Below, piece by piece: positions 71-1,632 of a stretch of DNA of 64,000 nucleotides. Under the pieces are notes generated by a model. The model saw nothing but the letters and a program-made list of their open reading frames with translations, was not told the origin of the DNA and searched no databases. The stretch is taken from positions 44,144,001 to 44,208,000 of the forward strand of contig OX597829.1 in the NCBI GenBank assembly GCA_951406725.2, read 5' to 3'. The first letter of the stretch is position 1, and each line of letters starts with the position of its first letter. The DNA comes from Octopus vulgaris (taxonomy: Eukaryota). Both the position numbers and the translations under genes were made by a program.

Positions 71-372
71 ACATCCTCGGTTATTACATCGGTTTGTAGA
101 GCTTGAACAATCTTGGTGCAATCGGCATATCGTATCTTTTTTTCCAATCATTTTACACAATGTTGTTGGAAAGGGAGAAATGTGAAGATGTCATGGTTTT
201 TATTTGTATAACGTGTGTGAGCATTGTGAGAATTGTGAATAAGAAACACTGATTACACAAACCACTAGTCAAATACAGTTCTATATTTAAGAGATGAGGA
301 ATTATGTACATTATTTACATTATTTACATTATTTACGTTTGGCGGATATTTGTCCTCATCTTGTTTGTTATT

Positions 373-421
373 GACACAACGTTTCGGCTGATATACCCTT
401 CATCAGCCTTCATCAGGTGTC
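373..421 (-). ncRNA. Minimal type I hammerhead ribozyme motif (Penelope-type)
   Basis: Minus strand: GACAC-CUGAUGA-A-GGCUGAU(gaagggtat)AUCAGCC-GAAAC-GU-U-GUGUC; 5-bp stem I, 7-bp stem II, palindromic ACGU stem III, GUU triplet. Confidence 0.7.
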
Positions 422-495
422 ATGGGGAAATTTCGAATCTTAGGTCTCATTCTTAAGGTATTTTCTTAAGGTATTTTCCGATGTTATTATTATCA

Positions 496-621
496 CCGAG
501 GTCAATTTTGCCTTTCATCCTTTCGGGGTCGATAAATTAAGTACCGGTTACGTACTGGAGTCAATCTAATCGACTGGTCCCCTCCCCCAAAATTTCGGGC
601 CTTGTGCCTAGAGTAGAAAAG
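496..621 (+). mobile_element. 5'-truncated SINE with Meta-like domain (family D) inserted in (ATT)n
   Basis: gaggtcaattttgcctttcatcctttcggggtcgataaattaagtacc shared with many copies in the window; resembles the MetaSINE central domain. Confidence 0.75.
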
Positions 622-804
622 ATTATTATTATTATTATTATTATTATTATTATTATTATTATTATTATTATTATTATTATTATTATTATTATTATTATCA
701 TCATTATTATTATTATTATTATTATTATTATTATTATTATTATTATTATTATTATTATTATCATCATCATCATTATTATTATTATTGTTATTATTATTAT
801 TCAT

Positions 805-875
805 GTCACTGCTTGGAATCGAACTCGGAATCTTGGAGTTAGTAGCCCGCGCTCTTAACCACTACGCCATATGCC
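805..875 (-). promoter_or_regulatory. tRNA-like Pol III internal promoter (A and B box) of the fold-back element
   Basis: Minus strand TGGCGTAGTGG (A box) ... GAGTTCGATTCC (B box); 5'-truncated inverted copy at 881-925. Confidence 0.7.
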
Positions 876-1208
876 AGTGAGGCTACTAACCCCAACATTC
901 CGAGTTCGATTTCAGGCAGTGACCTGAATACTACTACTACTACTACTAATAATAATAATAATAATAATAATAACAACAACAACAACAACAACAACAACAA
1001 CAACAACAACAACAATAATAATAATAATAATAATAATAATAATAATAATAATAATAATAATAATAAGAAGAAGAAGAAGAAGAAGAAGAAGAAGAAGAAG
1101 AAGAAGAAGAAGAAGAAGAAGAAGAAGAAGAAGAATGATAATAACAAAAATAATTGTAACATCGAAAAATACCTTAGGAATGAGAACCCAGGTTCGAAAT
1201 TTCCCCAA

Positions 1209-1254
1209 GGCACCTGATGAAGACTGGAGGGTATATCAACCGAAACGTTGTGTT
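1209..1254 (+). ncRNA. Second copy of the minimal hammerhead motif (stem II damaged)
   Basis: GGCAC-CUGAUGA-A-gacug...caacc-GAAAC-GU-U-GUGUU; core intact, two mismatches in stem II. Confidence 0.6.
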
Positions 1255-1632
1255 AACAACAAACAAGATGAGGACAAATATCTGTCAAATGTAAATAATG
1301 AAAATAATGCACTAGTCAAATATTTACATTGTATTGTGTGCATACGACTCCATTGTATAAGTATGTTCACATGCATGTTCATGTGATCTGATGTGTGTGT
1401 GTACGTGTATGTGAGTGTCTGAGTGTGTGTGAGTGTGTGTTTGCTTTAAAATAGACAGACTACGATTTGTGGGCGATTTCTAGTGGCTCAATCTCCTGGT
1501 TTCGTCTGCCTAATCAAAGAGGATCCGCCATTAGATCATACTTTACTACTCAAGTGTAGCGGTCTGAATCAATGATACTTCTTGGAAGGCGGGGTACTTG
1601 GAGGGGAGCACTTAGTTTCCTTAATAGAACGG

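Follow-up and report, generated by a model that had tools for sequence, protein, structure and literature searches.

A tRNA-like head in the terminal repeats of a protein-coding Penelope-like element of Octopus vulgaris and its SINE-like solo copies

An inverted pair of short repeats in the genome of Octopus vulgaris raises the question of whether a unit composed of a tRNA-like head, a trinucleotide tract and a hammerhead ribozyme is a SINE that took over the end of a Penelope-like element (PLE), as the original prediction had it, or a part of such an element. The pair lies in a stretch of 64,000 nucleotides (assembly GCA_951406725.2, contig OX597829.1, positions 44,144,001 to 44,208,000), which is referred to here as the window. 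Three tRNA-derived retroposons of octopus were reportedly described by Ohshima and Okada in 1994.

The structure at 263-1322 was seen again as predicted: two copies of one unit face outward from position ~880, each with a tRNA-like head, a trinucleotide tract and a minimal hammerhead tail (Table 1). The direct repeat said to enclose the whole structure is the 13-mer CACTAGTCAAATA, which is present at both ends and nowhere else in the window (chance expectation 0.01). The left unit (minus strand, 879 to 276) has both the A box and the B box, while the right unit (plus strand, 881-1309) begins at tRNA position ~+29 and is missing the A box; the box positions agree with the complete left head and the 5′-truncated right head described originally. 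The arms are 87-89% alike, and the outer end of the left arm lies 33 nt beyond that of the right one. The left arm includes a 13-bp tandem duplication and is interrupted by a 139-bp piece of another repeat, which brings two T4 runs and has 9 further matches within the window. The family of this piece is abundant and short, and was also noticed at 2657-2921, 3583-3939, 7329-7407, 19953-20045, 35958-36051, 53337-53418 and 60811-60928. Other repeats of the window are a 166-nt unit at 1633-2130, in three tandem copies (two of them 96% alike), and two adjacent hammerhead-like cores (CUGAUGA...GAAAC) of another sequence family at ~20520-20610 on the minus strand.

Table 1 Features of the fold-back insertion in the window.
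Feature	Position	Strand	Remark
Target-site duplication, left copy, 13 bp	263-275	+	Exact repeat
33-nt PLE 'tail' extension, left arm only	276-308	-	ORF sequence in full elements, continuing into the ORF
Left arm, pLTR 3′ part	276-483	-	With 13-bp tandem duplication, 450-475
Minimal type I hammerhead, left arm	373-421	-	Checked against family columns
Left hammerhead, stem I	421-417/377-373	-	
Left hammerhead, core	416-410	-	
Left hammerhead, stem II	408-404/390-386	-	
Left hammerhead, GAAA	385-382	-	CG palindrome 381-380; predicted cut after 378
Later insertion into microsatellite, piece of another repeat family	484-622	-	9 other window matches
(AAT)n tract, left arm	623-801	-	
tRNA-like head, left arm, complete to usual 5′ boundary	802-879	-	A box 869-859, B box 824-815
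5′-truncated head, right arm	881-926	+	B box 904-913
Mixed (TAC/AAT/AAC/AAG)n tract, right arm	927-1159	+	
Right arm, pLTR 3′ part	1160-1309	+	Ends at short site
ATG, likely ORF start in full elements	1180-1182	+	Within right arm
Minimal hammerhead, right arm	1209-1254	+	Two stem II mismatches
Target-site duplication, right copy	1310-1322	+	Exact repeat

The left hammerhead has the complete core and perfect stems claimed for it (CUGAUGA, one extra base, GAAA, CG and UU, with 5/5 pairs in stem I and 5/5 in stem II). Rfam called neither a tRNA nor a hammerhead in the window unit, and ARAGORN called no tRNA at the window head.

A search of the genome (2.8 Gb in 227 contigs) gave 3,034 first-look candidates with the tail and 1,232 with the head. 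The element was present in 15 of 100 unselected stretches of 10 kb, which extrapolates to ~42,000 insertions (Poisson range roughly 24,000-69,000). The predicted linkage of head and tail holds in other copies, the head being followed by the tail within 700 nt at 23/29 head-selected loci, and so do the target-site duplications: exact duplications of at least 8 nt flank 21 of the 31 fold-backs in which both 3′ ends are present (window included), compared to 3.4% of mismatched flank pairs. Fold-back insertion in the manner of PLEs also recurs, in 10/15 unselected insertions and, as inverted pairs, in 46/78 clusters overall. Among the two-ended fold-backs, 28 join a long and a short end, 3 join two short ends and none joins two long ends, the 33-nt 'tail' being present at exactly one end in 28/31. 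An inverted 5′-truncated copy with a one-ended tail of 30-40 bp is a PLE signature in the available text of PMC8557442, and the excerpt of PMC11167929 gives the tail as the distance between two internal reverse transcriptase (RT) start sites; internal RT starts and an ORF overlapping the hammerhead are likewise described for PLEs in those parts of both sources. Non-majority bases are common to both arms of one insertion about twice as often as to permuted pairs (0.0059 vs 0.0028, P 0.001, 28 pairs), consistent with a single source element for each insertion.

A profile search of the unselected sample revealed a divergent RT fragment directly upstream of the head in locus L236. A search with this piece gave 6,430 candidates, from which 30 loci, one of them the query's own, were taken by RT similarity alone. 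Head or tail was present in 27 of these; the end of the ORF was reached in 18, the head following within ~20 nt in 15/18 and the tail being reached in 11/18. At the other end, a search with the 5′ part of the ORF showed the tail abutting it in 27/30 loci, and 4/30 had the order ORF end-head-tail-ORF start (tandem junctions). Two complete pLTR-ORF-pLTR copies (L346 and L350, ~2.5 kb head to head) were found among 10 fetched, with the tRNA-like head and (AAT)n at both ends; the autonomous PLE with the same end that the prediction had called for thus exists, with an RT/GIY-YIG ORF between its pLTRs. The ORF end-head junction is also bridged by contigs from two further public runs whose organism labels differ (X1 record 4, X16 record 16), indicating that the link is no artefact of this assembly. 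Given a head after the ORF stop, a tail before the ORF start and complete pLTR-ORF-pLTR copies, the whole unit, head included, is the terminal repeat (pLTR) of an autonomous PLE, putatively of the Penelope/Poseidon type as judged from its motifs.

The ORF is 2.2 kb long, with RT and endonuclease (EN) motifs in the expected order. In L284, L292, L300 and L302 the frame is open from the ATG in the tail, across the hammerhead and on into the ORF, and L282 has a natural open frame of 300 aa, from YVDD through GIY-YIG to the stop. This frame matched HTH_animal/GIY-YIG clusters at 0.97 in an atlas comparison and had no match in Pfam; compared by eye with Neptune frames, it is without the Zn-finger-like linker between RT and EN, unlike Neptune/Nematis. 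An intact ORF was seen in no copy, the best protein matches being 72-88% identical to the query copy. The RT-GIY-YIG linker of L253-L282 varies among copies by a single base within a homopolymer, and RT and EN are out of frame in 5/8 measurable copies; a slippage site could account for this, or a defective subfamily that is moved in trans. In many copies of L284-L312 the ORF 5′ part breaks off within a few hundred bases and is followed directly by the ORF end or the tail, which suggests frequent template switching.

Several young PLE families of the Neptune type (L061-L102, L143-L192 and, on the minus strand, window ~55390) were considered as partners of the unit and rejected: none has the same tail, and their hammerheads and ends differ. 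One of them has many open frames of 781 aa. The hammerheads at their 3′ ends are variants in which core position 3 is U and position 8 is often A, resembling the U3-A8 variant in the available text of PMC4209133. A different (AAT)n-bearing inverted repeat, whose hammerhead has a short stem III, was noticed at L127 ~7400-8100 and L072 ~1066, and is possibly another PLE-related short family.

The reading of the unit as a SINE that borrowed a PLE tail is not borne out, the head and (AAT)n belonging to the pLTR of the autonomous element at both ends. The short copies are non-coding and dispersed, with target-site duplications, a defined 5′ end and A/B boxes, and outnumber ORF-bearing copies 13 to 2 among 15 unselected insertions. 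The tails of short copies diverge by 7.4% and those of ORF-linked copies by 5.5-6.7%, the short copies being no younger; the alignment comparison found no variant confined to them; and their grouping as one clade apart from ORF-linked copies was rejected (AU p 0.004, from 41 vs 25 rows of star-like data of 150 nt). Since the autonomous element itself carries the head and there is no separate clade, the short copies do not qualify as an independent SINE lineage; in size, promoter boxes and 5′ end they nevertheless behave like one. A class of tRNA-derived SINEs bearing a hammerhead is also already in print (Sm-alpha/Sj-alpha; PMC2770079, PMC6765202).

The head aligns without gaps to the host tRNA-Arg(TCG) (39/60, z 7.7), the best of 35 tRNA sequences representing few isotypes only. 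Tail-selected and unselected loci together gave 48 arms for a count of 5′ ends. In 12 of them the end lies within the head; the other 36 reach the head start, and of these 29 terminate at -12..+5, a span of 18 nt, and 7 extend further (26/33 terminate there when the L002 array counts once); by our arithmetic, the stopping rate at the head start is ~20 times that elsewhere. On the sense strand, T4 runs are absent from ~2,200 majority columns (0 vs 2.3 expected from synonymous shuffling, P 0.057), and runs of T3 or longer are depleted in the same columns (P 0.038); the deficit is marginal, and the codon test runs partly out of frame near the linker indel. Natural ORF pieces of 570-2,190 nt contain 0-1 T4 runs, and four Neptune ORFs used as controls contain 6-7, as expected. 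These data suggest that the head may be an internal Pol III-type promoter of the PLE, which would shed SINE-like solo pLTRs; such a promoter would explain the tens of thousands of short SINE-looking copies genome-wide.

By the criteria of Cervera and De la Pena (2014), a minimal type I hammerhead is present in the pLTR of family copies. The predicted PLE-type hammerhead with a consensus core was recovered in the family columns (136 copies), which have the core, a stem I of 4-5 bp, an extra base before G10.1-C11.1 and a palindromic 15.2-16.2. Outside CpG sites, only one variant of the core is common (25/136 copies), and it falls on N7, a position free to vary, indicating that the hammerhead was constrained in the source elements. 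Compensatory double changes in the stems amount to 2 in 1,360 cells, the copies decaying neutrally from near-identical sources, and 0/22 hammerheads of the unselected sample are intact. Inserted hammerheads decay and the arms extend past the cut site, in line with PAc of Anolis, for which cleavage is dispensable for insertion in vitro; cleavage would not be needed for the octopus insertions.

We consider it probable that the two window units are solo pLTRs of the Penelope/Poseidon-type element, that the head is its promoter and that both arms arose as one fold-back made by the element's own RT/GIY-YIG protein. The RNA would start ~3-10 nt ahead of the tRNA-like sequence, in the manner of Pol III, and without T4 runs transcription could read through the ORF. 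RT would start at two internal sites of this RNA, which lie close to the ORF start and are separated by 33 nt; the same sites in the 5′ pLTR would lie ~250 nt from the RNA 5′ end, and priming there would produce a SINE-sized solo pLTR with a defined 5′ end, making a separate SINE unnecessary. Both nicked target strands would be primed, one per site, and the two cDNAs joined head to head, which would leave ends of unequal length, one long and one short, and a duplication of 9-14 bp. Cutting by the hammerhead would require a dimer or the help of protein. More tentatively, and with the balance somewhat against it, a coding Penelope-type element with an end-to-end Pol III transcript from a captured tRNA-derived pLTR promoter, an ORF purged of T4 and shed solos that partly re-amplify could be a route to SINEs like Sm-alpha.

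The sharp 5′ boundary might also arise if the head were a passenger, left by an old SINE insertion in the pLTR of an element with Pol II or read-through RNA, and the short copies were ordinary 5′-truncated 3′ ends stopping at a hairpin at the head start. A small natural palindrome does lie at this boundary and is lengthened to a perfect hairpin by the junctions in L026, L055, L060 and L234, so part of the pile-up of 5′ ends may be a fold-back hot spot; the T4 deficit reaches just P ~0.06, and the only PLE promoter studied, that of Penelope, resembles TATA-less LINE promoters in the excerpt of PMC2377424. However, the natural hairpin is just ~5 bp, the ends spread over -10..+5 with many 3′ of the palindrome centre, the A and B boxes are kept, and the near-full elements L285 and L300 also start at the head start; we regard a passenger head as unlikely.

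The short copies have a defined 5′ end and A/B boxes, lack a terminator and outnumber ORF-bearing ones, which would also suit a true SINE derived from the pLTR. In such a SINE, solo copies retaining the A/B boxes and the long end would have Pol III transcripts of their own, and the PLE protein would move these again in trans. This is nevertheless quite improbable, because the head belongs to the autonomous element and the short copies have no clade, variant or younger age of their own. A retrozyme route is more improbable still, by a wide margin: tandem arrays would be transcribed, their dimeric hammerheads would cut the RNA to monomers or circles, and these would be reinserted. Animal retrozymes are proposed to derive from pLTRs in the available text of bioRxiv 10.64898/2026.07.22.740005, and L002 836-1885 (G000:C22 ~14.416 Mb) is a head-to-tail array of ~239-bp units, the first 5′-truncated, in a retrozyme-like arrangement; however, it is the one array among 59 head- or tail-selected loci, the two PLE RT-start sites at which the insertions end are 60-95 nt beyond the cut site, and the 5′ ends of the insertions lie at the head, away from the cut.

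The element shares much of its anatomy with PAc and the Penelope-Poseidon PLEs as described in the available parts of PMC11167929, PMC8557442 and PMC4209133: a single ORF with RT and C-terminal GIY-YIG, pLTRs in partial tandem, a minimal dimer-type hammerhead overlapping the ORF start, an inverted 5′-truncated copy and a one-ended tail of 30-40 bp. It differs in the tRNA-like A/B-box head and the (AAT)n tract at the start of its pLTR, in the predominance of solo pLTRs with a sharp 5′ end among its copies, and in an ORF without conserved T4 runs. Sm-alpha/Sj-alpha of Schistosoma likewise have a tRNA-derived head, a type I hammerhead, high copy number and apparent Pol III transcription, but the schistosome hammerheads, which number thousands, are canonical, Sm-alpha is processed from tandem repeats, and the excerpts of PMC2770079 and PMC6765202 name no autonomous element with the same head. 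A small-RNA-derived Pol III promoter inside a terminal repeat, with tRNA-like dispersed copies, is also found in TRIMp3 (Helenus, Ajax, Cassandra); these are, in the available text of PMC10886601, non-coding LTR elements with PBS/PPT and target-site duplications of 4-5 bp, whereas the octopus element is a protein-coding PLE. Non-LTR retrozymes and non-autonomous PLEs are likewise short repeats that are related to pLTRs and bear a type I hammerhead, and their mobilisation is attributed to PLEs (parts of bioRxiv 10.64898/2026.07.22.740005 and PMC7229834; MRC1 in PMC8557442); non-LTR retrozymes are defined there by tandem arrays and circular RNA, with no tRNA head mentioned in those parts, whereas the octopus copies are mostly dispersed fold-backs.

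The anatomy of PLEs is already known, as are minimal hammerheads of the dimer type (from the part of PMC4209133 available), a pLTR origin of retrozymes has been proposed (excerpts of bioRxiv 10.64898/2026.07.22.740005 and PMC7229834), and the accessible portions of PMC13282606, PMC6685494 and PMC3899998 contain nothing on a tRNA-headed pLTR architecture. The literature covered, which lies outside Repbase, Dfam and most subscription journals, contains neither a coding PLE whose pLTR is tRNA-like nor a tRNA SINE driven by a PLE; an earlier description of the unit as a SINE is possible. Hammerhead tRNA SINEs and Pol III promoters in non-coding LTR repeats are known as well, and what appears to be new, within this literature, is a tRNA-like head in the pLTR of a coding PLE.

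A repeat that every annotation pipeline would classify as a tRNA SINE can therefore be the terminal repeat of an autonomous PLE. The asymmetry of long and short ends (28/31) leads to a genomic prediction for PLE inverted inserts with a one-sided tail, namely that they would arise from two primings, one per RT start site. If the head is a working promoter, the octopus element would be a protein-coding retroelement under Pol III control, which would raise the question of how an uncapped RNA is translated and of the role of a hammerhead 70 nt into the ORF.
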